DNA from: an uncultured bacterium
GTDB taxonomy: Bacteria > Patescibacteriota > Minisyncoccia > Phycocordibacterales > CAIZLB01
Length of the DNA: 64,000 nucleotides
Assembly (NCBI GenBank): GCA_903821355.1
Contig: CAIJKW010000018.1
Coordinates: 1,453 to 65,452 of the forward strand
Direction of reading: 5' to 3'
Shown: in pieces, positions 18,558 to 43,708 of the stretch
How positions within the stretch are numbered: the stretch's first letter is position 1
Layout: every line of letters starts with the position of its first letter
Program-made: the position numbers and the translations under genes
Notes under the pieces: model-generated
The model's database searches: none
The model's input: the letters and a program-made list of their open reading frames with translations, nothing else
Told to the model about the DNA's origin: nothing

Positions 18558-18641
18558 GCGCGAGTGTTGAAACTGGTAGACAAGCACCCTTGAGGTGGGT
18601 GTGCCCGTAAGGGTGTGGAGGTTCAAGTCCTCTCTCGCGCA
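18558..18641 (+). tRNA. tRNA-Leu (anticodon GAG), long variable arm
   Basis: Acceptor GCGCGAG/CTCGCGC, anticodon loop TTGAGGT, long extra arm, T-arm GGTTCAAGTCC. Confidence 0.75.
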
Positions 18642-18669
18642 CATTAAAAAGTATTGCCTGTCGATATTC

Positions 18670-30491: not shown

Positions 30492-31031
30492 ATGAACACC
30501 AATGAAGTTTTCGAAGATCTTTTGAAACTGCCGACCCCTAAAATTATCTTGTCGGGCAAGGTAGATCGGGAGATGCGTAATCGTGTATTCAGGTCTCTTA
30601 CTTTTCTCACAACCAAAGGCTCTCCGGATGTGGAAATCATCATTGAGTCTAGTGGCGGTGAGGTGAGTCACGGCCTCGACATCTATGATGCACTCCGCTT
30701 GTATCAAGGCAAGAAGAAAGGGATTGTCATCTCAGAGGCAGGATCTATGGCGGCAATCATCCTCCAGGCTTGTGACACTCGCCAGTGCGCTTCACACGCC
30801 TACATCCTTGTTCACAATGGAGATTGTCGGATAAAATTTGATGTCCTCTTTGACGATGCCGCTTTGGCTGCATTCAAAAAAGAAAAGCAAGAAACCCTGT
30901 CTCTGCTCCACACAATCCTTTCGACCAAGACCGGCAAAGAGGATCGTGAAGTTGTTGAGATGTGTAAGCCCGATAAATGGATAACGGCACAAAAGGCCTT
31001 AGAACTAGGATTGATCGATGAGATCGTCTGA
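30492..31031 (+). CDS. ClpP-like (S14) serine protease on GC-rich island 3
   Basis: IIESSGGEVSHGLDIYDAL (like ClpP INSPGG...GLAIYDTM), GSMAA catalytic Ser context, ILVHNG His context; about 48% GC against 35% flanks. Confidence 0.55.
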   Translation: MNTNEVFEDLLKLPTPKIILSGKVDREMRNRVFRSLTFLTTKGSPDVEIIIESSGGEVSHGLDIYDALRLYQGKKKGIVISEAGSMAAIILQACDTRQCASHAYILVHNGDCRIKFDVLFDDAALAAFKKEKQETLSLLHTILSTKTGKEDREVVEMCKPDKWITAQKALELGLIDEIV

Positions 31032-31134
31032 GTCCAAAACCTCTCCCTCCTCCATTTTCACAAACAGCGTTGCCCAGACGGGCGGCGCTGTTTTTTCTGT
31101 TGTGATTATTTTATTGCATGATAATATACAAACC

Positions 31135-32910
31135 ATGAAGAAAGTTATTACTAAAGCCATATTGGAAGCTGTTAAGGATGATAGTTCTGTTGATTTCTTA
31201 GAGAACAGAGAGTTGTTGGACAGACCAGCGGATTTATCTCACGGAGACTATTCTACAAACGTTGCTATGATCTTAGCCCCAAAACTTGGTGTTAAGCCTT
31301 TAGATTTAGCCAATAAAATTGTTATAAAACTTCAAGATAAGATCTCTGGTGTTAAAAAAGTAGAAGTCGCAGGCCCTGGATTTATCAATTTTCACCTTGA
31401 AGAAGAATCCAGTTTAAAATTAATAAAAGAAATTTTTGACGAAAAGATTGGCGGGTTGAATTATGGAAAGTCAGATTTGCACGCCGGAAAAAGGATTGTC
31501 TATGAATATACTGATCCAAATCCATTTAAGCAATTTCATATTGGACATTTGATGTCTAACGCAATAGGGGAATCAATGTCTCGTCTTGCTGAATGGTCCG
31601 GGGCAGAGGTAAAAAGATATTGTTATCAGGGAGATGTTGGTAGGCATGTCGCTCTTACATTCTACGGTTTTGATTTACTGAAAAGTGAGGAAGGAGCGGT
31701 TTGGCCAAGTGATGAAATAACTCTTAGCGAAAAGGTGGCTTTTTTGGGAAAGATATACGCAAAGGGGGCGACTCATTTCAAGGATCACCCAGAAGATGAA
31801 GAAAAAGTTCAAGAGATAAATAAGAAAATTTACGATAAGTCAGATGAAGAAATAAACAGACTATATGATTTGGGAAAAAAATGGAGCCTAGAACATTTTG
31901 AAGAGCTTTATAAAATTCTTGGAACAAAGTTTGATCAGTACTTCTTTGAGAGTGATAGTTCAGCGATCGGACTTGAAGAAGTGAAGAAAGCACTAAAGTC
32001 AGGCGTATTTGAGGAGAGTGAAGGCGCCGTTATTTTCAAAGGAGAAAATTATGGGTTGAACACTCGTGTTTTTATAAATAAATTTGGATTGCCAACTTAT
32101 GAGGCTAAAGAACTTGGACTTGCTTTGCTTAAAAGCAAGAGAGAACCGTTTGATATTTCTTATACAATAACGGCCAATGAACAAGATAATGTCTTGGCGG
32201 TTTCCTATAAAGCAATTGAACAAATATATCCAGAAATTGCAAAAAAGAATTTCCATATTTCTCATGGGATGTTAAGACTCACCACAGGCAAGATGGGATC
32301 AAGGACTGGTAATGTGATTACAGGGGAGTCGATGATTGACGATATGACAGAAATGGCTCTTGAGAAGATGAAAGAAAGAGAAATTCCTGAAGTAGAGAGA
32401 AAAGAAATTGCACAGCAGATTGCTGTTGCCGCAATTAAATATACAATTCTACGTCAAACAATTGGAAGAGATATAATTTTTGATGCGCAAAAGTCATTAT
32501 CATTTGAGGGTGACTCTGGTCCATATCTTCAATACTCTTGTGTTCGTGCCAAGTCAGTCTTGGACAAAGCGGAGAAACAAGGTTTGTCTGCTGAGCTTCA
32601 TAATCTATCCGTTGATAAATTAAAGGAGTTAAATATTTGCAGCCTTGGTTGGGCTGGTGGAAAGTTAGAAAAAATGCTGATTAGATTTCCAGAAATACTT
32701 TTACGCTCTGAAAAAGAGCATGCCCCACATCATGTTGGACAATATCTATTAGATTTGGCGTCTGAATTTAATTCGTTCTATGCAAACACTCAAATTATTT
32801 CTGAGAATGATGAGCTTACCCCATATAAATTATCTCTGACAAAAGCTTTGTTAATAGTTTTAACTAATGGATTGGATGTTCTAGGAATCAAGGTACCAAG
32901 CAGGATGTAA
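31135..32910 (+). CDS. argS: Arginine--tRNA ligase
   Basis: HIGHLMSNAIG (HIGH) and C-terminal DALR anticodon-binding region; start set to ATG 31135 (MKKVITKA) rather than 31018, which overlaps the ClpP-like gene. Confidence 0.9.
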   Translation: MKKVITKAILEAVKDDSSVDFLENRELLDRPADLSHGDYSTNVAMILAPKLGVKPLDLANKIVIKLQDKISGVKKVEVAGPGFINFHLEEESSLKLIKEIFDEKIGGLNYGKSDLHAGKRIVYEYTDPNPFKQFHIGHLMSNAIGESMSRLAEWSGAEVKRYCYQGDVGRHVALTFYGFDLLKSEEGAVWPSDEITLSEKVAFLGKIYAKGATHFKDHPEDEEKVQEINKKIYDKSDEEINRLYDLGKKWSLEHFEELYKILGTKFDQYFFESDSSAIGLEEVKKALKSGVFEESEGAVIFKGENYGLNTRVFINKFGLPTYEAKELGLALLKSKREPFDISYTITANEQDNVLAVSYKAIEQIYPEIAKKNFHISHGMLRLTTGKMGSRTGNVITGESMIDDMTEMALEKMKEREIPEVERKEIAQQIAVAAIKYTILRQTIGRDIIFDAQKSLSFEGDSGPYLQYSCVRAKSVLDKAEKQGLSAELHNLSVDKLKELNICSLGWAGGKLEKMLIRFPEILLRSEKEHAPHHVGQYLLDLASEFNSFYANTQIISENDELTPYKLSLTKALLIVLTNGLDVLGIKVPSRM

Positions 32911-32987: not shown

Positions 32988-35900
32988 ATGACTTCAAAAC
33001 AAAATGATTTGGCCGAAGATAAAGGTCAAAACGGGGTAGGGCTACCCGTTCAAGACAAGTCCGAAACTATCAAAAAAGAAGAAACTGCAGAAAGTACCAT
33101 ATCAATTAAAGAAAAGGCTGTTTTGTCTTTTTGGAATGAGAATAAAATTTTTGAGCAATCTCTAAAAAAAGACTCTCCACTTGGAAATTTTGTGTTTTAC
33201 GATGGACCTCCATACGCTACAGGGCTTCCTCATTATGGGCATATTTTGCCAAACTCGTTAAAAGATTTATTGCCTAGATACAAGACGATGAGGGGTTTTC
33301 ATGTTGATAGAAAATGGGGGTGGGACTGTCATGGACTACCAATTGAAAACTTGATAGAGAAAAAGCTTGGTCTCAAAGATAAAAAAGCTATTGAGGAATA
33401 TGGGGTTGATAAATTTAATAAAGCTGCCAAAGAAAGCGTCCTAGTTTATGCAGAAGAGTGGAGAGAAAGAATTCAAAGGATTGGTAGATGGGTTGATATG
33501 GATAATGATTACAGAACAATGGATTCAAGTTATACAGAATCTGTTTGGTGGTCTTTTTCTGAATTAAATAAAAAAGGTCTTGTTTTTGAAGATTACAAGG
33601 TAATGCAGGTCTGTCCTAGATGCGGAACCCCTCTTTCAAATTTTGAGGTTGCTCAAGGGTATAAAGATATTGCTGACATTTCTGTTTATGCAAAGTTTGA
33701 AATTAAAGATCAATCTCTCGCTTCAATAAAAAGTTATTACGATATAGATGCTGACTCAAAAACATATTTCCTTGCTTGGACAACAACCCCATGGACACTT
33801 CCAGGAAACGTTGCTCTTGCAGTTAATCCAGAGTTAACATACGTTTGTGTTTCTGTTAAGACAGGATCAGATGCAGTTTTGACAAGAGAAAATTATATTA
33901 TTGCCGAAAGTCTCTTTGAAATATTAAAATCCAAAAAAATACTTCCTGATGATGCGGAGTTGCTTGTTGCCAAGAAAGCTCTGACAGGAAATGGTTTGAC
34001 CGGTCTTTCATATGAACCCGTATTTGACTACTACAAAAAAGAGGGAACACTAGAGTTGCATGAAAAGGAAAGAGGAAATATTTGGAAGGTTTATACCGCG
34101 CCCTTTGTCACAGCAGAAGACGGAACGGGGATTGTTCACATTGCTCCCGCTTATGGAGATGATGACATGAAGTTGTCTAAGACATATTCTCTACCTGTAA
34201 TTAAGCATGTTGGTTTTGATGGACTATTTGTTGATTTAATAACTGAGATGAAAGGTAAGTCAGCAAAGCCTAAAGAAGATCACCAAAGCGCTGATATCGA
34301 AATCATTAAAATTCTTGCACAAAAAGGAGTGTTGCTTGCTAAGGAAAAAATGACTCACTCGTATCCTCATTGTTGGAGATGCGAGACTCCACTGATTAAC
34401 TTTGCAACAACAAGTCTTTTTGTTAGGACAACATCTCTGAAAGATAAACTAATTGAAGAGAATAATAAAATAAACTGGGTACCAAAAGAGATTGGATCTG
34501 GACGTTTTGGTGAGTGGTTGGAAAACATAAGAGACTGGGCAATTTCAAGAACAAGATATTGGGGTGCACCTGTTCCCATGTGGAAGTCAGATAGTGGAAA
34601 AATAGAAATACTTGGGTCGTATGCTGATCTTAAGGAAAAAATTCGTCAAAACTCTAATAACAACGGATACATTTTAATGAGACATGGAGAGGCTGAGTCA
34701 AACGTAAAAAATATTATCAATGCTCACGATTTAAATCTTTATGGATTAACAGAGAAGGGTGTTGAGCAAGTAAAAGAATCGGCTTTGAAGTTGAAAGAGG
34801 CTGGAGTTATGGCAGGGGATATAACAAGTGATCCTGTAAAAGAAGATGTTGGTAGAAAAACTGGTCCAATCACAAAAATTTATTGTTCTGATTTCAGGAG
34901 AACAAAAGAGACCGCTAAAATTGTAGCAGAGGTACTTGGTCTTGATGAATCAAAAATAATATATGATCCACGTATTAGAGAATGCGACAATGGTGAATTG
35001 GAAGGCCATAATGGCGATGAGAGAACTGCTTGCTTTAAATCGGAAGAACAAAGATTATATTTTGGTCCAGGTGGAGGGGAATCTGCTTATGAAATTAAAA
35101 AGCGAGTCGCAGGTTTTCTATATGACATAGACTCACTAAACAAAGATGAAAACATCCTTATTATAACTCATGGATTGCCATTGAGAATGATCAAGGAGGC
35201 ATCTAAAGGGAGAACTGCTAGAGATATGTATAGAAGTGGTTGGCAGGATGTCTCTGATCCAAACGCCTCACTTCACTCCATCGATTTTGTCCAAATGCCA
35301 CATGATGAAAATTTTGAGCTTGATGTCCATAGACCATTGATTGACGCAATTACTTGGAAAAACGAAGACGGAGAACTCATGAAGAGAATCCCTGACGTCT
35401 TTGATGTTTGGTATGACTCTGGGTCAATGCCTTTTGCTTCTCAACATTATCCATTTGAAAACAAAGAAGAGTTTGAAAAAGCTGATAGTAAAATATTCCC
35501 CGCTGATTTCATCGCTGAAGGTTTGGATCAAACTAGAGGTTGGTTTTATTCATTACTCTGTCTTGGCGTTAGTTTGTTTGGAAAATCTCCATTCAAGAAT
35601 GTTTCCGTTAATGGTTTAATTTTGGCAGAAGACGGAAGGAAGATGGCAAAGAGTCTGAATAACTATCCTGAGCTTATGGGCGTCATTGAAAAATACGGCG
35701 CTGATTCATTAAGATATTTTTTGGTTACATCTCCCGCTGTTACAGCAGAGGAGGTTGCCTTTTCGGAAAAATCTTTAGATGAGATTAATAAAAAAATATT
35801 CAACAGACTAGATAATGTTTATACATTCTATAAAACATATTCAGAAATGTTTGGGAAAGACTCTTCCGACGTTTTACACTCACTCAAATCAGAAAATGTG

Positions 35901-36737
35901 TTAGACCAATGGATTTGGGCAAAACTTAAAAAGTTGAACAGAGACATGACCAGAGATTTTGATTTATATTTAATATCAAAAGGAGCTCGTCCTATCGCTC
36001 AGTTTGTCGATGAACTATCTACTTGGTATCTAAGAAGGTCCAGAGATAGGTTTAAGGGGGACAATACAGTTGATAGAGATTTTGCAATTGCAACACTTAG
36101 GTCTGTATTATTAAATCTATCAAAACTAATCGCTCCAATTATTCCTTTCTCTGCAGAGGATTTATATCAAAAAGTTAAAGATGCAAACTCTAAATTGAGT
36201 GTGCATTTGGAGGACTGGCCAGAACTCGGAGAGCTTTCTGAAAAGGAAGAGTTGTTGCTTGTTAATATGGATGCGGCCAGAAATTTAGTAGAAACGGGTC
36301 TATCTCTTCGTGCTAAATCTCAAATAAAAGTTAGGCAGCCTCTTTCATCTTTTATCTATACAAATAAGGAAGGTAAGGGACTGCATTCAGAAATAGAAGA
36401 AATTATTAAAGATGAGCTGAATGTAAAGTCAGTAGCAATCGGTGAGGCGGTTTTTCTCGACACAGCTATAACCCCAGAATTAAAAGAAGAAGGAATGTCT
36501 AGAGATTTAATTAGAGCAATACAGGAAGCTAGAAAAGCATTTGGTTTTTCTCCAAATGATAAGATTATTTTACTTATCGAAAATAATTCTGCTGGTAAGT
36601 TGATGGTAGAAAAATATTATTCATCAATCGCCAAAACTGTATTAGCTGAAAATATAAGTCTATCTGATTTTGAGGGAGGTGAGGCGGTTTCAATTGGTGA
36701 TCAAGAGGTCAGATTCATCGTAAAATCAGTAAAATAA
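32988..36737 (+). CDS. ileS: Isoleucine--tRNA ligase with an inserted histidine-phosphatase (phosphoglycerate-mutase family) domain
   Basis: HYGH (HIGH), WAISRTRYWGAPVPMW, DVWYDSGS, KMAKS (KMSKS); about 200 inserted aa bearing LMRHGEAESN, RRTKETAKIVA and ITHGLPLRM (RHG...H catalytic dyad) between the WxISRxRxWG and DxWxDSG blocks; 1249 aa total. Confidence 0.9.
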   Translation: MTSKQNDLAEDKGQNGVGLPVQDKSETIKKEETAESTISIKEKAVLSFWNENKIFEQSLKKDSPLGNFVFYDGPPYATGLPHYGHILPNSLKDLLPRYKTMRGFHVDRKWGWDCHGLPIENLIEKKLGLKDKKAIEEYGVDKFNKAAKESVLVYAEEWRERIQRIGRWVDMDNDYRTMDSSYTESVWWSFSELNKKGLVFEDYKVMQVCPRCGTPLSNFEVAQGYKDIADISVYAKFEIKDQSLASIKSYYDIDADSKTYFLAWTTTPWTLPGNVALAVNPELTYVCVSVKTGSDAVLTRENYIIAESLFEILKSKKILPDDAELLVAKKALTGNGLTGLSYEPVFDYYKKEGTLELHEKERGNIWKVYTAPFVTAEDGTGIVHIAPAYGDDDMKLSKTYSLPVIKHVGFDGLFVDLITEMKGKSAKPKEDHQSADIEIIKILAQKGVLLAKEKMTHSYPHCWRCETPLINFATTSLFVRTTSLKDKLIEENNKINWVPKEIGSGRFGEWLENIRDWAISRTRYWGAPVPMWKSDSGKIEILGSYADLKEKIRQNSNNNGYILMRHGEAESNVKNIINAHDLNLYGLTEKGVEQVKESALKLKEAGVMAGDITSDPVKEDVGRKTGPITKIYCSDFRRTKETAKIVAEVLGLDESKIIYDPRIRECDNGELEGHNGDERTACFKSEEQRLYFGPGGGESAYEIKKRVAGFLYDIDSLNKDENILIITHGLPLRMIKEASKGRTARDMYRSGWQDVSDPNASLHSIDFVQMPHDENFELDVHRPLIDAITWKNEDGELMKRIPDVFDVWYDSGSMPFASQHYPFENKEEFEKADSKIFPADFIAEGLDQTRGWFYSLLCLGVSLFGKSPFKNVSVNGLILAEDGRKMAKSLNNYPELMGVIEKYGADSLRYFLVTSPAVTAEEVAFSEKSLDEINKKIFNRLDNVYTFYKTYSEMFGKDSSDVLHSLKSENVLDQWIWAKLKKLNRDMTRDFDLYLISKGARPIAQFVDELSTWYLRRSRDRFKGDNTVDRDFAIATLRSVLLNLSKLIAPIIPFSAEDLYQKVKDANSKLSVHLEDWPELGELSEKEELLLVNMDAARNLVETGLSLRAKSQIKVRQPLSSFIYTNKEGKGLHSEIEEIIKDELNVKSVAIGEAVFLDTAITPELKEEGMSRDLIRAIQEARKAFGFSPNDKIILLIENNSAGKLMVEKYYSSIAKTVLAENISLSDFEGGEAVSIGDQEVRFIVKSVK

Positions 36738-36805: not shown

Positions 36806-37402
36806 GTGTCATATAGAATTTACCACACGGAAGGTTATATTATAGACAGTTCGACCTCTGGAGAATCAAATAAGGTCTTTACGATTTTAACATCGGAACT
36901 TGGAACTATTATTGCAACTGCTCAAGGTGTTCGAAAGTTAGAGTCCAAGCTAAGGTACAGTTTACAAGACTTAACCTATGCCAAATTTGCTTTAGTTAGA
37001 GGAAAAGAAATTTGGAGAATTACGGGCGCTGAAAAAATCGTAAATATTTACGATAAGAAAATCCCTGTCCAAATTAGACAGTTTTTGGCACGCACGCTCT
37101 CTTTTATTAAGAGACTTTCGCCTGGAGAGGCTGTGAACAAAAGGGTTTTTGAAGAGTTCGACAATTTACACAAAGCTGTAATATCTTCAAAAATGATAAG
37201 AGACAACAGTGATTTGAATGCCGTTGAAAATTTGATGTATCTCAGAGTTGCTCATCATTTTGGCTACGGAACACCAAGTGAAAAACTGAAAGCTATTGTT
37301 TACTCTCCTTCTTGGAACATTGAGATTAGAGACAATGCGATAGATTTGATTGAAGAGACAAAAAAAGAGCTAGCTTCAATACTTTCTGAGACTCAATTGT
37401 GA
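36806..37402 (+). CDS. recO: DNA repair protein RecO (short form)
   Basis: N-terminal OB-fold pattern EGYIID...GESNKVFTILTSELGTIIATAQGVRK; C-terminal LRVAHHFGYG matches the RecO hLGY motif. Confidence 0.6.
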   Translation: MSYRIYHTEGYIIDSSTSGESNKVFTILTSELGTIIATAQGVRKLESKLRYSLQDLTYAKFALVRGKEIWRITGAEKIVNIYDKKIPVQIRQFLARTLSFIKRLSPGEAVNKRVFEEFDNLHKAVISSKMIRDNSDLNAVENLMYLRVAHHFGYGTPSEKLKAIVYSPSWNIEIRDNAIDLIEETKKELASILSETQL

Positions 37403-39558: not shown

Positions 39559-40914
39559 ATGGAAGAAATAATTGCTTTAGCTAAAAGACGTGGCTTTATA
39601 TATCAAGGCTCAGAAATATACGGCGGCCTTGCTGGAACTTGGGACTATGGACATTTAGGCCTAGCCCTTAAAAACAACATAAAAAATACCTGGTGGAGAC
39701 GTTTCGTTTTAGACAGAGAAGATATGTATGGCGTTGACGCTGCAATTCTCATGAATCAAAACGTTTGGAAGGCAAGTGGTCACGTTGCTGGTTTCTTTGA
39801 CCCGCTAGTTGATGACTTGAAAACCAATAAAAGATATAGAGCTGACTCTCTGCTTGAAGAGGCAGGCCTTAGCATAAAAGGCATGTCTATTGAAGACATG
39901 AATAACTTGATCAAAGAGAAGGGAATTAAAAGTCCTGAAGGAAATCCCCTTGGAGAAGTTAGGCAATTTAGAATGATGTTTACAACTCACGTTGGAGCAA
40001 ATCAAGATGAGGCTTCTGTTTCATACTTGCGACCTGAGACTGCACAAGGAATGTTCGTTAACTTTAAAAATATTTTAGATTCTTTCCATCCAAAGATTCC
40101 TTTTGGTATGGCTCAAATTGGAAAGGCATTTAGAAATGAGATTGCTCCTAGAGATTTTATATTTAGAACTCGTGAATTTGAACAAATGGAGATCGAGTAT
40201 TTTGTTAATCCAAAAGCGTGGGAGACATCCTTCGATCATTTTAGAAATGAAATGCATGCATTTGCATCTGATGTTGGACTCAATCCAGCAAAAGTCCATG
40301 AACATGAAATTGCTCCAGAAGACTTGGCACACTATTCTAAGAGAACAATAGACTTCGAGTTTGATTTTCCAATGGGTATAAAAGAACTTTATGGATTGGC
40401 TTACAGAACTGATTTTGATTTGAAGAGTCATAGTGATGCGTCCGGTGTTGATTTGTCTTTTTTTGACGAAGAAACAAAAGAGCGATACATCCCTCATTGT
40501 ATAGAGCCTTCCCTTGGAGTCGACAGAACTGTTTTGGCGGTTTTAACAGATGCCTATTCTGAGGATGATGTTGGTGGGGAAAAAAGGGTTTATTTAAAAC
40601 TTTCTCCAAAGATTGCACCCGTTTTGATTGCGGTTTCACCGTTGCTTAAGAATAAGACTCAATTGGTTGAGAAGGCTAGGGAGGTCTATGGAATTTTACG
40701 AAAGGAATTTCCTGGTAGAATAATGTTTGACGATAATGGAAATATTGGAAAGAGATATAGAAGACAAGATGAAATTGGTACTCCATTTTGTATAACTATA
40801 GATTTTGATACGGTAGAGAAGGATCAGACAATGACACTTAGATATAGAGACTCTGCCACACAAGACAGACTTTCAATTGAGCAAATTGTTAAGGTTGTGA
40901 AGGAGGCGATTTAG
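39559..40914 (+). CDS. glyS: Glycine--tRNA ligase, alpha2 (archaeal/eukaryote-like) type
   Basis: N-terminus IIALAKRRGFIYQGSEIYGGLAGTWDYGHLG characteristic of alpha2 GlyRS; class II motifs. Confidence 0.85.
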   Translation: MEEIIALAKRRGFIYQGSEIYGGLAGTWDYGHLGLALKNNIKNTWWRRFVLDREDMYGVDAAILMNQNVWKASGHVAGFFDPLVDDLKTNKRYRADSLLEEAGLSIKGMSIEDMNNLIKEKGIKSPEGNPLGEVRQFRMMFTTHVGANQDEASVSYLRPETAQGMFVNFKNILDSFHPKIPFGMAQIGKAFRNEIAPRDFIFRTREFEQMEIEYFVNPKAWETSFDHFRNEMHAFASDVGLNPAKVHEHEIAPEDLAHYSKRTIDFEFDFPMGIKELYGLAYRTDFDLKSHSDASGVDLSFFDEETKERYIPHCIEPSLGVDRTVLAVLTDAYSEDDVGGEKRVYLKLSPKIAPVLIAVSPLLKNKTQLVEKAREVYGILRKEFPGRIMFDDNGNIGKRYRRQDEIGTPFCITIDFDTVEKDQTMTLRYRDSATQDRLSIEQIVKVVKEAI

Positions 40915-40928
40915 CAAAATCTCCCCAT

Positions 40929-40985
40929 GGCGATCCTGCTGGATCGCCTACTGGGCGATTCAGTAGAATCGCCTACACCGGCTCG
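40929..40985. repeat. Palindromic intergenic repeat, copy B
   Basis: ggcgatcctgctggatcgcc tactggg cgattcagtagaatcgcc tacaccggctcg; TATAAT at 41032-41037. Confidence 0.7.
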
Positions 40986-41060
40986 ACTATCGGGCGTTCT
41001 GTAGACACTGCACCCTGGCTGGGCTTTGCAGTATAATCAATCTGGTGCTATTCTTTAGGT

Positions 41061-42134
41061 GTGCCAGATAAAAGTAATTCGTTAAATCTAAATATAAGCT
41101 TCACTACGCTCTTTAAGATAGCGGTCTTTTTGCTTGGGGTATATCTATTATTTGTTCTAAGGGGTCTCGGTTTGATAATACTTACAGGTATTGTGATTGC
41201 TTCTGTTGTGGAACCTGCGGTTAAATGGTTTGTAAAAAGAAATCTTCCCAGAGCCCTTTCTGCTATATTGGTCTACGCTTTAATTATAGGTTCGCTCACT
41301 TTGGTGTTCTCCTTTGCAGTTCCTCCTCTTTTAGGAGAGATGGTTTCAGCTGTTAATAGTATTCCTAAATACGTTAAGACCATTGATATATTCACTCCTA
41401 TAAACAAAAATGCTTATAGCGGTACAAAGTTGTTTTTCCCAGATATCCCTACAACAATCTCAGTCGGCGATGTTATTTCAAATACAACCGGTGCAATCTC
41501 AAATTTCTCTGGTGGTATGTTTGATACTGTGGCAGGATTCTTTGGTGGAATCATTAGTTCTATTTTAGTTCTGGTTATATCTTTCTACCTTTCCGTTAGA
41601 GAGGATGGGGTTGGAGAATTTTTATCTATTGTTACTCCGCCTGAGAAAGAAAAATATGTTAGAGGCTTGTGGCAAAGAGCTGAAACCAAAATTGCTAGAT
41701 GGATGCAAGGTCAGGTAATGTTGGGGCTAGTTGTTTTTGTCTTTATATATATCGGATTGGTTTTAATTGGTGTGAAGCATCCATTGCTTCTTGCTATGAT
41801 TGCTGGAATATTTGAATTAATTCCAGTTGTGGGAATGACTCTATCCGCAATACCCGCATTCTTTATGGGGGTATTAGATGGAGGAATAGGAGTCGGATTG
41901 TTTATCGTCGGACTTTACTTGATAGTGCAACAAATAGAGGCACATGTGTTTTATCCTTTGGTTGTTAAGAAATTAATTGGAGTTCCACCACTTCTGGTTA
42001 TTATTTCACTTGTTGCCGGCGCTGAACTTGCCGGAATTGTTGGTGCGATACTTGCTATTCCGGTCTCTGTTGCACTCATGGAATACATAGATGATGTAGA
42101 GAGACGAAAGAAAGATGATTTGGTGAAGGGGTAG
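41061..42134 (+). CDS. AI-2E family (PerM/YhhT-like) transporter
   Basis: 357 aa polytopic membrane protein with the AI-2E topology; apparent GTG start. Confidence 0.5.
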   Translation: MPDKSNSLNLNISFTTLFKIAVFLLGVYLLFVLRGLGLIILTGIVIASVVEPAVKWFVKRNLPRALSAILVYALIIGSLTLVFSFAVPPLLGEMVSAVNSIPKYVKTIDIFTPINKNAYSGTKLFFPDIPTTISVGDVISNTTGAISNFSGGMFDTVAGFFGGIISSILVLVISFYLSVREDGVGEFLSIVTPPEKEKYVRGLWQRAETKIARWMQGQVMLGLVVFVFIYIGLVLIGVKHPLLLAMIAGIFELIPVVGMTLSAIPAFFMGVLDGGIGVGLFIVGLYLIVQQIEAHVFYPLVVKKLIGVPPLLVIISLVAGAELAGIVGAILAIPVSVALMEYIDDVERRKKDDLVKG

Positions 42135-42149
42135 AAAAAATACAGGATA

Positions 42150-42177
42150 CCGCCGCAGGCAGGCCTGCCTGCGGCGG
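42150..42177. repeat. Perfect 28-nt GC-rich palindrome between the AI-2E gene and metG
   Basis: ccgccgcaggcaggcctgcctgcggcgg equals its own reverse complement. Confidence 0.6.
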
Positions 42178-42181
42178 GGGT

Positions 42182-43708
42182 ATGAAAATCGATAATAAAA
42201 ATAATAGAATGTCACAAACTCAAAAAACTTTTTATATTACTACGACTCTGCCTTATGTAAACGCAGATCCTCATATTGGATTCGCGATGGAGATAATCAG
42301 AGCTGATGTCATAGCTAGATACAAGAAATCATTAGGATATGATGTGTTTTTTAATACTGGCACTGATGAACACGGTTTAAAATTATTTGAAACAGCAAAA
42401 GAAAAAAAGATGGATATCATGGATTTTTTGAATGAAGTTTCCTCAACTTACAAAAATCTTCTGGTGGATCTGAATATTTCTAGAGACGTGCATTTTATAA
42501 GAACTACAGATGAACATCACAAAAAAAGCGCACAAGCACTTTGGAAAAGGGTTAAAGACAACGGTTATATTTATAAGAAAAACTATCAAACAAAATATTG
42601 TGTTGGGTGTGAAGAAAATAAGACTGACTCAGAACTAGTTGACGGCAAGTGTCCATTGCACCCTAATCGTGAACTAGAAATTATCGATGAAGAAAACTAT
42701 TTTTTTAAACTCTCCGCACTCGCCGATGATCTGTTTACTCTTTTTGAGTCTAATCCAAAACTAGTTATTCCAGAGACAAGACTAAATGAAATGAAGGAGT
42801 TTGTGAGAAGAGGTCTGGAGGATTTTAGTATTTCAAGGCTTAAATCAAAGATGCCATGGGGAATCGATGTTCCAGATGATACAGAACATGTCATGTATGT
42901 TTGGTTTGACGCTCTTACAAACTACATCTCTACTTTAGGTTGGCCAGAAAATGAAAATGACGATGGGAAAAACGGCACTGACAACGGAGATTTTAATAAG
43001 TATTGGGTCACGGGATCGCCTGTTCAGTATTGTGGAAAAGATAACACAAGGTTTCAATCAATTACATGGCAGTCGATGCTTTTGGCTGCAAAGTTGCCTA
43101 CCACACATAGTATTATTATAAATGGTTGGATTACAGGGGAGGGTGGGGTGAAGATGTCTAAATCGTTAGGAAACACCATTAATCCAAGTGAAGTCGCGAA
43201 AGAATATGGGGCCGACGCGTTAAGATTTTTTGTAACAAAAGAATTGCAACCATTTGAAGATTCTCCTTTCGCAATAAATAAATTCAAAGAAGTCTATAAT
43301 GCCCACTTGGCAAACGGAATTGGCAATCTAGTTTCTAGGACAATGAAGATGGCGACTTCCTATGAAGCCAAACTTTCTGAGGAGGACATTAAGGCTGTAC
43401 ATCTTTCAGTAGACATTTTAAATGGTACAGAAAATAAAGATGTAGAAAACTTTAGATTAGATTTGTATGTTCAAGAAATTTTTGACGAATTTACAAAACT
43501 AGACCAGTTCATCCAAGAAGAGCAACCATTTAAAAAGTTTAAGGTAAATCCAGAAGAGGCTCGCAATGATTTGGTGTACATACAAAAACAATTGCTGACG
43601 GGTGTTTATAAGTTGTCTGTTGTAATGCCTGAGACATCAAAAGTTGTTGTTGATTGTATCGTAAATCACAAAATGCCAGAAGCCCCATTGTTTTTAAGAA
43701 AGGATTAA
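42182..43708 (+). CDS. metG: Methionine--tRNA ligase
   Basis: PYVNADPHIGF (HIGH-type), zinc-knuckle Cys cluster, VKMSKSLGN (KMSKS); true start may be MSQTQ at 42209. Confidence 0.85.
   Translation: MKIDNKNNRMSQTQKTFYITTTLPYVNADPHIGFAMEIIRADVIARYKKSLGYDVFFNTGTDEHGLKLFETAKEKKMDIMDFLNEVSSTYKNLLVDLNISRDVHFIRTTDEHHKKSAQALWKRVKDNGYIYKKNYQTKYCVGCEENKTDSELVDGKCPLHPNRELEIIDEENYFFKLSALADDLFTLFESNPKLVIPETRLNEMKEFVRRGLEDFSISRLKSKMPWGIDVPDDTEHVMYVWFDALTNYISTLGWPENENDDGKNGTDNGDFNKYWVTGSPVQYCGKDNTRFQSITWQSMLLAAKLPTTHSIIINGWITGEGGVKMSKSLGNTINPSEVAKEYGADALRFFVTKELQPFEDSPFAINKFKEVYNAHLANGIGNLVSRTMKMATSYEAKLSEEDIKAVHLSVDILNGTENKDVENFRLDLYVQEIFDEFTKLDQFIQEEQPFKKFKVNPEEARNDLVYIQKQLLTGVYKLSVVMPETSKVVVDCIVNHKMPEAPLFLRKD

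Follow-up and report, generated by a model that had tools for sequence, protein, structure and literature searches.

A histidine phosphatase domain nested in the CP3 subdomain of isoleucyl-tRNA synthetase, and its split-gene counterpart, in Patescibacteria

A 64,000-nucleotide stretch of contig CAIJKW010000018.1 (assembly GCA_903821355.1) from an uncultured small-genome bacterium, referred to at its full length as the window, carries on its forward strand a single unbroken open reading frame (ORF) of 1249 aa (32988-36737) that represents an ileS gene with a phosphatase domain nested inside it. The product is probably (at about 80%) a bifunctional enzyme, in which an editing-competent type-2 isoleucyl-tRNA synthetase (IleRS) holds a real, active histidine phosphatase, captured as a partner, in the loop of its connective peptide 3 (CP3); this figure excludes any guess at the substrate. 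The ORF is present exactly as described in a first-pass annotation of the window, and the three strings quoted there as histidine phosphatase signatures were located, namely LMRHGEAESN (residues 563-572), RRTKETAKIVA (637-647) and ITHGLPLRM (726-734). The interval given there for the insert, 34600-35300, corresponds to residues 538-771 and covers the phosphatase domain.

The same annotation had claimed a complete histidine phosphatase domain between the WxISRxRYWG and DxWYDSG blocks of the synthetase, and this was borne out by a match to PF00300 (E value of 1.9e-27; 96.6 bits against a gathering score of 21.7) and by a confidently predicted fold. An AlphaFold2 model of residues 552-792 alone, built from an 89-sequence alignment, had a predicted local distance difference test score (pLDDT) of 90.3 and a predicted template modeling score (pTM) of 0.88, its one disordered portion being a lineage-specific loop at approximately 610-621, and in a larger AlphaFold model of residues 36-1235 (1200 aa; pLDDT 88.9, pTM 0.82) the phosphatase was equally confident in its context. 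Using Foldseek against the PDB, 290 matches were found at an E value of 0.001 or lower, the top ones (1e-12 to 1e-10) being histidine phosphatases of approximately 200 aa: 6s2q (a mycobacterial hydrolase), PspA (4ij5/4ij6), TIGAR, Rv2419c, PhoE and CobC. All 50 of the top matches listed are histidine phosphatases or mutases. Conservation of the catalytic residues (Table 1) was counted in an alignment of 153 full-length homologs, the phosphatase parts of which are 31 to 52% identical to that of the window, and R565, H566, R638, E665 and H728 remained invariant when 11 stand-alone relatives were added. The domain alone scored below the equivalog cutoffs for CobC (TIGR03162, 65.7 against 162.9) and PspA (NF045917, 46.4 against 350), as did the whole protein for SixA (TIGR00249, 21.6 against 74.5). 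No model in PADLOC-DB 2.0 matched the insert or two stand-alone relatives, P0001 and P0199, to which we return below.

The best NCBIfam match of the domain is the archaeal-type dPGM (NF038349, 71.6 to 74.9 bits) and the best PDB sequence match is the phosphoglycerate mutase of S. pombe (1fzt), as might be seen if the domain were a phosphoglycerate mutase of the cofactor-dependent type that performs a step of glycolysis. That identity is very improbable, given scores far below the respective cutoffs (74.9 against 225 for NF038349 and 26 against 81.7 for TIGR01258). In the mutases, the second phospho group and the carboxylate group are bound by specific residues (an Arg and a Tyr following the catalytic Glu, an RR pair and an Asn next after the second His). 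Relative to 1fzt, however, ERYYG is replaced by ECDNG in the window, the RRSY segment is deleted and HGNSLR reads HGLPLR, and across the family the residue following E665 is I, V, C or L, where mutases have Arg. The established mechanism of the histidine phosphatase superfamily runs via a phospho-histidine intermediate. As the mutase-defining residues are absent, the domain is therefore expected to be a phosphomonoesterase, and from its residue set it should hydrolyze a phosphomonoester through a phospho-H566 intermediate.

The surrounding synthetase is predicted to be intact and editing capable from its motifs. The 1249-aa protein scored 873.9 bits against TIGR00392 (ileS, NCBIfam; equivalog cutoff 621.4), and Pfam identified tRNA-synt_1 (PF00133; 442 bits, split in two), Anticodon_1 and DUF5915 in addition to His_Phos_1. 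Both class I signatures are well conserved in the homolog alignment, with H82, G84 and H85 of HYGH retained in 143, 143 and 149 of the 153 sequences and K885, M886 and K888 of KMAKS in 150, 142 and 151, respectively, and the editing motifs WTTTPWT (residues 264-270) and GTGIVH (379-384) are kept in 152 to 153 of them. The nearest solved structures are those of Priestia (P.) megaterium IleRS2 (8c8u, 701.9 bits) and T. thermophilus IleRS (1ile, 699.2 bits), compared with 300 bits for the type-1 enzyme of S. aureus (1ffy); by these scores, and by its DUF5915 C terminus, the IleRS of the window is classed as type 2. Scores of 671 and 718 bits against the MupA/MupB mupirocin resistance IleRS models (NF000257 and NF000258) fell well below the cutoff of 1900. 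A Lys/Glu-rich N-terminal extension of approximately 36 residues (MTSKQNDLAEDKGQNG...; 32988-33095) precedes the residues that align to solved IleRS structures.

Table 1. Coordinates of the nested-phosphatase ileS gene, its parts and its neighbors in the window
Feature	Position	Strand	Basis
ileS, type-2 (eukaryote-like) IleRS with nested phosphatase	32988-36737	+	ORF call; TIGR00392; nearest structures 8c8u/1ile
HYGH, class I HIGH signature (residues 82-85)	33231-33242	+	153-sequence alignment
CP1 editing domain (residues ~224-461)	33657-34370	+	Match to isolated editing-domain structure 1wk8
CP2-CP3 linker DWAISRTRYWG (residues 516-526)	34533-34565	+	Conserved motif in 153-sequence alignment
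CP3, N-terminal half (residues 527-557)	34566-34658	+	Comparison with 8c8u, L081 and 33 other IleS
Nested His_Phos_1 domain (residues ~558-769)	34659-35294	+	PF00300; family hidden Markov model (HMM) envelope 560-769; AlphaFold; Foldseek
R565-H566-G567, phosphate-binding Arg and nucleophilic His	34680-34688	+	R 153/153, H 153/153, G 150/153
Lineage-specific disordered loop in phosphatase (residues ~608-622)	34809-34853	+	Only segment with pLDDT <50 in both models
R638, second phosphate-binding Arg, in FRRTKET	34899-34901	+	153/153
E665, general acid/base	34980-34982	+	152/153
H728, second catalytic His, in ITHGLP	35169-35171	+	153/153
CP3, C-terminal half (residues 770-805; PHDENFELDVHRPLID...KRIPDVF)	35295-35402	+	Comparison with 8c8u, L081 and other IleS
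DVWYDSG (residues 806-812), start of second half of Rossmann fold	35403-35423	+	Conserved motif
KMAKS, class I KMSKS signature (residues 885-889)	35640-35654	+	153-sequence alignment
Anticodon-binding domain (973-1121) and C-terminal DUF5915 (1154-1247)	35904-36728	+	Pfam
argS, upstream neighbor	31018-32910	+	Pfam tRNA-synt_1d, DALR_1, Arg_tRNA_synt_N
recO-like gene, downstream neighbor, kept in split and nested arrangements	36806-37402	+	RecO_N

The insertion point was mapped by comparison with IleS proteins lacking the phosphatase. In a BLASTP alignment with the insert-less IleS of locus L081, residues 42-535 and 781-1210 of the window protein correspond to 8-456 and 478-912, such that 245 residues replace 21; against 8c8u, residues 37-538 and 775-1151 align to 9-463 and 483-849. 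The string WAISRTRYWGAPVP occupies residues 517-530 of the translation. Studies of yeast and Candida IleRS define CP3 as the segment that follows the W.(I/V)SR.RYWG linker and ends where the Rossmann fold enters its second half; its fold varies, and that of T. thermophilus bears a zinc motif (PMC7191050; PMC7955072). Among 33 IleS proteins from other genomes, CP3 was 55 to 84 residues long in 32 and 144 residues in the remaining one (L009), and many of the 33 share the pattern W.C..C - IGS..EL - DLH(K/R)P.(I/V)D - C.C. In the window, the phosphatase separates the IGS..EL helix from the LD.HRP element, and both Cys pairs of the zinc knuckle are gone, the first being replaced by MWKSDSGK where W.C..C is expected and the second by WKNEDG where C.C/C..C is expected. 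Judged by these alignments, the phosphatase is situated in the zinc-knuckle loop of a peripheral connective peptide, CP3, outside the editing domain and the catalytic strands. The first-pass annotation was therefore right in nesting the domain within the IleRS body and mistaken in assigning it to the editing/catalytic core.

To identify how widespread the architecture is, homologs were collected from NCBI, JGI, ENA and Logan assemblies, including contigs of up to 771 kb. In all 120 of the best full-length homologs (100% down to approximately 48% identity; 1143 to 1357 aa), PF00300 accompanies the IleRS domains. When 1.84 billion cluster representatives were searched exhaustively, using the insert only, 359 matches were obtained at an E value of 1e-10 or lower, and among the best 150 of these (representatives of 50% identity clusters) IleS sequence flanks the phosphatase in 113, the other 37 being short proteins. 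A word-indexed search with the insert only yielded 11 stand-alone proteins and no nested forms, the latter being recovered by the full-length and exhaustive searches. A scan of genome contigs mostly returned insert-less IleS of other phyla, in which the pattern WLENIRDW was dominant, with the insert found only in L001 and L002. Homolog source names ("Candidatus Paceibacterota" and "Pacebacteria") point to the phylum Minisyncoccota (Patescibacteria, or candidate phyla radiation), an assignment that rests on these names and on how L001 and L002 are labeled. On this evidence, the nested architecture is the norm in a large clade of Patescibacteria; the earlier description of it as unusual applies to IleRS in general and does not extend to this clade. 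The architecture can be seen in precomputed domain tables. The names supplied by the sources in the database are limited to "isoleucyl-tRNA synthetase" and "class I tRNA ligase family protein," and full-text literature searches directed at this IleRS architecture and comparable ones yielded no paper that describes it. IleRS and the phosphatase are known families, and it is their nested combination, its split counterpart and the evolutionary path between them that appear to be undescribed in the literature searched.

The breadth of this distribution also bears on whether the ORF could be an assembly, frameshift or gene-calling artifact, or harbor a mobile, intein-like element. Foreign insertions into the gene do occur, as one homolog (P0247) has an in-frame IS200-like domain; nothing else speaks for this explanation. 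The reading frame is unbroken, the same architecture is present in more than 150 proteins from the four sources, no Hint or endonuclease domains were detected by Pfam, and the G+C content of the insert (0.36 to 0.39) is the same as that of its flanks. A search for flanking or terminal repeats around the insert found none of note, and neither composition nor repeats give a sign of recent mobile insertion. An artifact or intein, its probability being next to nil, was rejected on these grounds. The first-pass view of an in-frame domain insertion, free of frameshift or fusion artifact, holds, with the synthetase and editing motifs intact and the layout repeated in more than 150 independent homologs, and what was observed goes far past chance.

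Further domains were found within the family. In four homologs (P0196, P0205, P0271 and P0279), the phosphatase is present in two to four copies, arranged in tandem at the same site in IleS, and every complete copy keeps the R, H, R, E and H residues. Others combine the phosphatase with a different enzyme: P0250 has a NUDIX domain at residues 226-343, P0280 has a GNAT domain at approximately 281-413 as well as a weak, subthreshold GNAT-like match at approximately 965-1000, and in P0247, residues 326-472 form an IS200/RAYT-like transposase domain and residues 935-1063 a GNAT domain. CP3 and CP1 of these IleRS serve as landing pads for further enzymes such as NUDIX and GNAT. The NUDIX part of P0250 also gave a weak match to the PADLOC candidate PDC-S07.

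A split-gene counterpart of the nested form was identified among the stand-alone relatives; this form, encoded directly upstream of ileS, is what the data add to the possible moonlighting or regulatory activity suggested in the first-pass annotation. In the window, the gene order is argS, ileS with the domain, recO, a gene for a DUF11 protein, glyS, an AI-2E transporter gene and metG. On the 589-kb contig of L081, the gene for the nearest stand-alone relative, P0001 (196 aa, 33% identical), is flanked by argS and by an ileS of 954 aa that lacks the insert, and recO, a CLIPPER/DUF11-like gene and glyS come next. The same arrangement holds for P0199 (195 aa; L085/L086), which is located between argS and the gene for a divergent, insert-less IleS of 984 aa, and P0221 (L088) precedes a class I synthetase fragment. 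The IleS partners of P0001 and P0199 both exceed the IleS equivalog cutoff. A metagenome scan was seeded with four stand-alone proteins, the 14-sequence set being too diverse for a locus scan, and the loci returned were processed with our own ORF calling and HMM annotation. From the analysis of 69 loci, 53 were found to be stand-alone and 16 nested; ileS lies directly downstream in 40 of the 53, the median distance from stop to start being 4 nt, and in most of those with ileS, argS is immediately upstream and recO downstream of a free-standing gene that encodes approximately 190 aa. The 16 nested loci share the argS-ileS-recO synteny. Stand-alone loci without ileS were mostly short contigs or distant homologs (27 to 34% identical) in unrelated contexts. 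As a control, no phosphatase family gene was present within 6 kb in any of 78 IleS-centered loci from other taxa; these, like the loci used to map CP3, were leftovers of the genome-contig scan.

The cysteines of CP3 allow the two forms to be ordered. Insert-less IleS proteins with a phosphatase neighbor have at least two plus two Cys in all 28 scorable cases, and exactly two plus two in 26. Among the nested forms, approximately 75 of 178 keep two Cys on each side of the domain, and 92 of the 178, those of the window and its closer relatives included, have lost all four. These counts imply a progression from a zinc knuckle with a neighboring phosphatase gene, through a domain inside an intact knuckle, to a domain with the zinc site lost. 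We infer that the nested form arose by capture of the neighboring gene into CP3, the knuckle being kept at first and later lost in the subclade of the window, and the pattern suggests that in one subclade the phosphatase took the structural place of the zinc site. Such a replacement, with all four zinc ligands lost and the domain perhaps now stabilizing the region, is also what would be seen if the domain were a pseudoenzyme, serving in place of the knuckle only as a structural or tRNA-binding module and performing no catalysis. This is very unlikely, as the 153 aligned sequences show almost no change in the five catalytic residues despite the low identity of the domain, and the approximately 75 nested forms noted above retain their zinc ligands beside it.

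Several observations weigh against the bifunctional reading with capture of a neighboring partner gene. In a neighbor-joining tree of IleS bodies, all nested forms shared a single large group with several insert-less sequences, and they formed one clade in 0 of 50 bootstraps; a single capture event is thus not shown by the tree, repeated fusion or fission and poor resolution both being possible. The IleS of L085 pairs in this tree with that of P0239, and its neighbor P0199 is most similar to the insert of P0239, so more than one fusion or fission event is possible. The patterns for the metagenome scan came from one stand-alone subgroup, such that the 40 of 53 loci are a phylogenetically biased sample. 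The stand-alone gene is as close to argS (median gap of 3 nt) as it is to ileS, and the housekeeping cluster also holds unrelated genes (recO and that of the DUF11 protein), so adjacency alone is no proof of shared function. Three further stand-alone relatives are located elsewhere, beside a tRNA-guanine transglycosylase gene, a methyltransferase gene and recO. Finally, the nearest structures identified by Foldseek are phosphatases of small metabolites and include no RNA enzymes.

Some of these observations would suit a pair of passengers, in which an ordinary housekeeping metabolite phosphatase, for example one acting on phosphoserine or a sugar phosphate, lay by chance beside ileS in a conserved cluster and was fused into a tolerant surface loop in the course of genome compaction and the two activities are independent. 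Its nearest folds and HMMs, those of PspA, PhoE, Rv2419c, CobC and the archaeal-type dPGM, are of that kind, and CP3, which varies in length and fold among IleRS, is therefore a permissive insertion site. We regard this explanation, the main rival, as a serious possibility that is nevertheless rather doubtful. Nested fusions were seen only in IleS and never in ArgS among the best 150 cluster representatives; the pairing holds in two IleS lineages, the bodies of which are only 37 to 44% identical to that of the window; the tandem copies at the insertion site are catalytically intact; NUDIX and GNAT, both nucleotide-directed enzymes, are nested in the same IleS family; and the gene was not near IleS in the 78 loci of other taxa.

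We therefore lean slightly toward the phosphatase and IleRS acting in one process, because nested fusions are confined to IleS, the pairing spans divergent IleS lineages and multicopy variants exist. A further reason is that other nucleotide-directed domains are nested in the family and that the linker lines a described tRNA-Ile pocket: the homologous stretch of the yeast enzyme, 453ARDWNVSRNRYWG465, lines the reveromycin pocket, which is the described tRNA-Ile binding site (PMC7955072). The occurrence of the same two proteins as a tight gene pair and as a nested fusion throughout a large and deeply diverged patescibacterial clade, with the phosphatase chemistry strictly preserved, is a classic signature of functional partnership, and would point to an unrecognized phosphate-removing step tied to isoleucine charging in organisms with minimal genomes. 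Such a partnership is directly testable, since nested and split versions can both be expressed. The proposed evolutionary route would itself be unusual, as a neighboring gene was taken up by the loop of a zinc knuckle that went on to lose its zinc site, and if the activities prove unrelated, the protein would still be a clear natural case of an enzyme inserted into an enzyme and tolerated by an essential protein.

As to what the phosphatase acts on, only tentative proposals can be made. The one that we prefer, although we consider it unlikely, is the removal of a phosphate or pyrophosphate that blocks either the 3' end of tRNA-Ile or an adenylate-like ligand bound at the synthetic site; CP3 would then be an additional outpost for hydrolysis, comparable to the CP1 editing domain. 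More speculative again is the phosphatase as a third catalytic site that serves the acceptor end of tRNA-Ile, or as a destroyer of a phosphorylated inhibitor that mimics the adenylate. Pyrophosphate and phosphate modifications of tRNA ends are known products of toxSAS toxins, and a literature search on toxins of the tRNA CCA end gave background papers only. As a third catalytic site, the domain would strip from the CCA end a 2'/3'-phosphate or pyrophosphate of the kind that ribotoxins leave behind or toxSAS-type toxins add. In both roles, IleRS would mend or deblock its own substrate ahead of charging. Lineages with split genes would do likewise with a two-protein complex, and the NUDIX and GNAT variants would be alternative countermeasures of the same kind.

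Comparison with characterized systems indicates which features are shared and which are particular to the window. IleRS2 of P. megaterium (8C8U) and the IleRS of T. thermophilus (1ILE) are alike to the window protein in their HIGH and KMSKS signatures, CP core zinc site, CP1, anticodon-binding domain and DUF5915; 8C8U differs in having approximately 20 residues of CP3 zinc knuckle (464-482) where the window protein has approximately 236, with the phosphatase present and the cysteines lost. The phosphoserine phosphatase PspA (4IJ5), PhoE (1H2E), the glucosyl-3-phosphoglycerate phosphatase Rv2419c (4PZ9) and CobC (6NRU), all short branch-1 histidine phosphatases of broad specificity, share the fold, the length of approximately 200 aa and the RHG/R/E/H set of the insert, with target-normalized template modeling scores of 0.68 to 0.75 and 18 to 25% identity. 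These proteins are free-standing, whereas the present phosphatase is nested in IleRS or encoded beside it, and the insert falls short of every NCBIfam equivalog cutoff. The CP1 editing domain of class Ia synthetases is likewise a hydrolytic connective-peptide insert in the Rossmann fold of the same enzyme; it differs in its unrelated fold, in its site (CP1 as opposed to CP3) and in hydrolyzing the ester of mischarged tRNA, compared with the phosphomonoester hydrolysis predicted for the insert.

Aminoacyl-tRNA synthetases have gained extra domains mostly in eukaryotes. In bacteria, to our knowledge, a second unrelated enzyme nested in the catalytic body of a synthetase is rare, and CP1 editing is the only established precedent that we know of for a second active site nested in IleRS. 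A curated family of IleRS with an N-acetyltransferase domain (NF040702) is a precedent for an extra enzymatic domain, and P0247 and P0280 combine GNAT with the phosphatase; the window protein has no GNAT domain by Pfam and scored 332.8 bits against a cutoff of 1999 for that family. The bifunctional RNase H/acid phosphatase (NF005567, PRK07238) provides a case in which a branch-1 histidine phosphatase is fused to a nucleic acid enzyme, and its phosphatase half matches the insert at 54 to 58 bits, under the cutoff of 326; it differs in being an end-to-end fusion with another partner enzyme.

A number of minor observations were made on the loci and the window. The gene for the stand-alone protein P0004 (L083, 4668-6394) overlaps the 3' end of the tRNA-guanine transglycosylase gene by 4 nt, giving it another tRNA-related neighbor. 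In L092 (5001-7254), argS and a stand-alone phosphatase gene are present and there is no ileS in the 1.6 kb downstream, where a 324-aa ORF without a Pfam match is found. In L143 (5585-8444), ileS is broken into ORFs of 326 and 620 aa; it is intact in L140 (5585-8503), which has the same upstream ORF layout, and the split gene is either a sequencing frameshift or a pseudogene. Within the window, argS, ileS, glyS and metG occur within 13 kb (39559-43708 region) in an order largely as on the L081 contig; synthetase genes are therefore unusually clustered in the lineage of the window. The listed argS ORF (630 aa; start region 31018-31135) overlaps the tail of a ClpP-like ORF (30492-31031) and is 34 to 118 aa longer than the full-length argS ORFs of relatives, with the true start probably near residue 40, at the Met of MKKVITKAI.... 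A tRNA-Leu(GAG) at 18558-18642 was called by ARAGORN and is absent from the Rfam gathering-threshold list (seven against six tRNAs). In L155 (4062-5045), L156, L157 (1469-2488) and L159, a cytidylyltransferase-like domain is joined to a distant relative of the phosphatase (29 to 34% identical); the fusion in L155 adjoins genes for a TET-associated glycosyltransferase and a ParB_N protein, an arrangement that recalls phage DNA modification cassettes.

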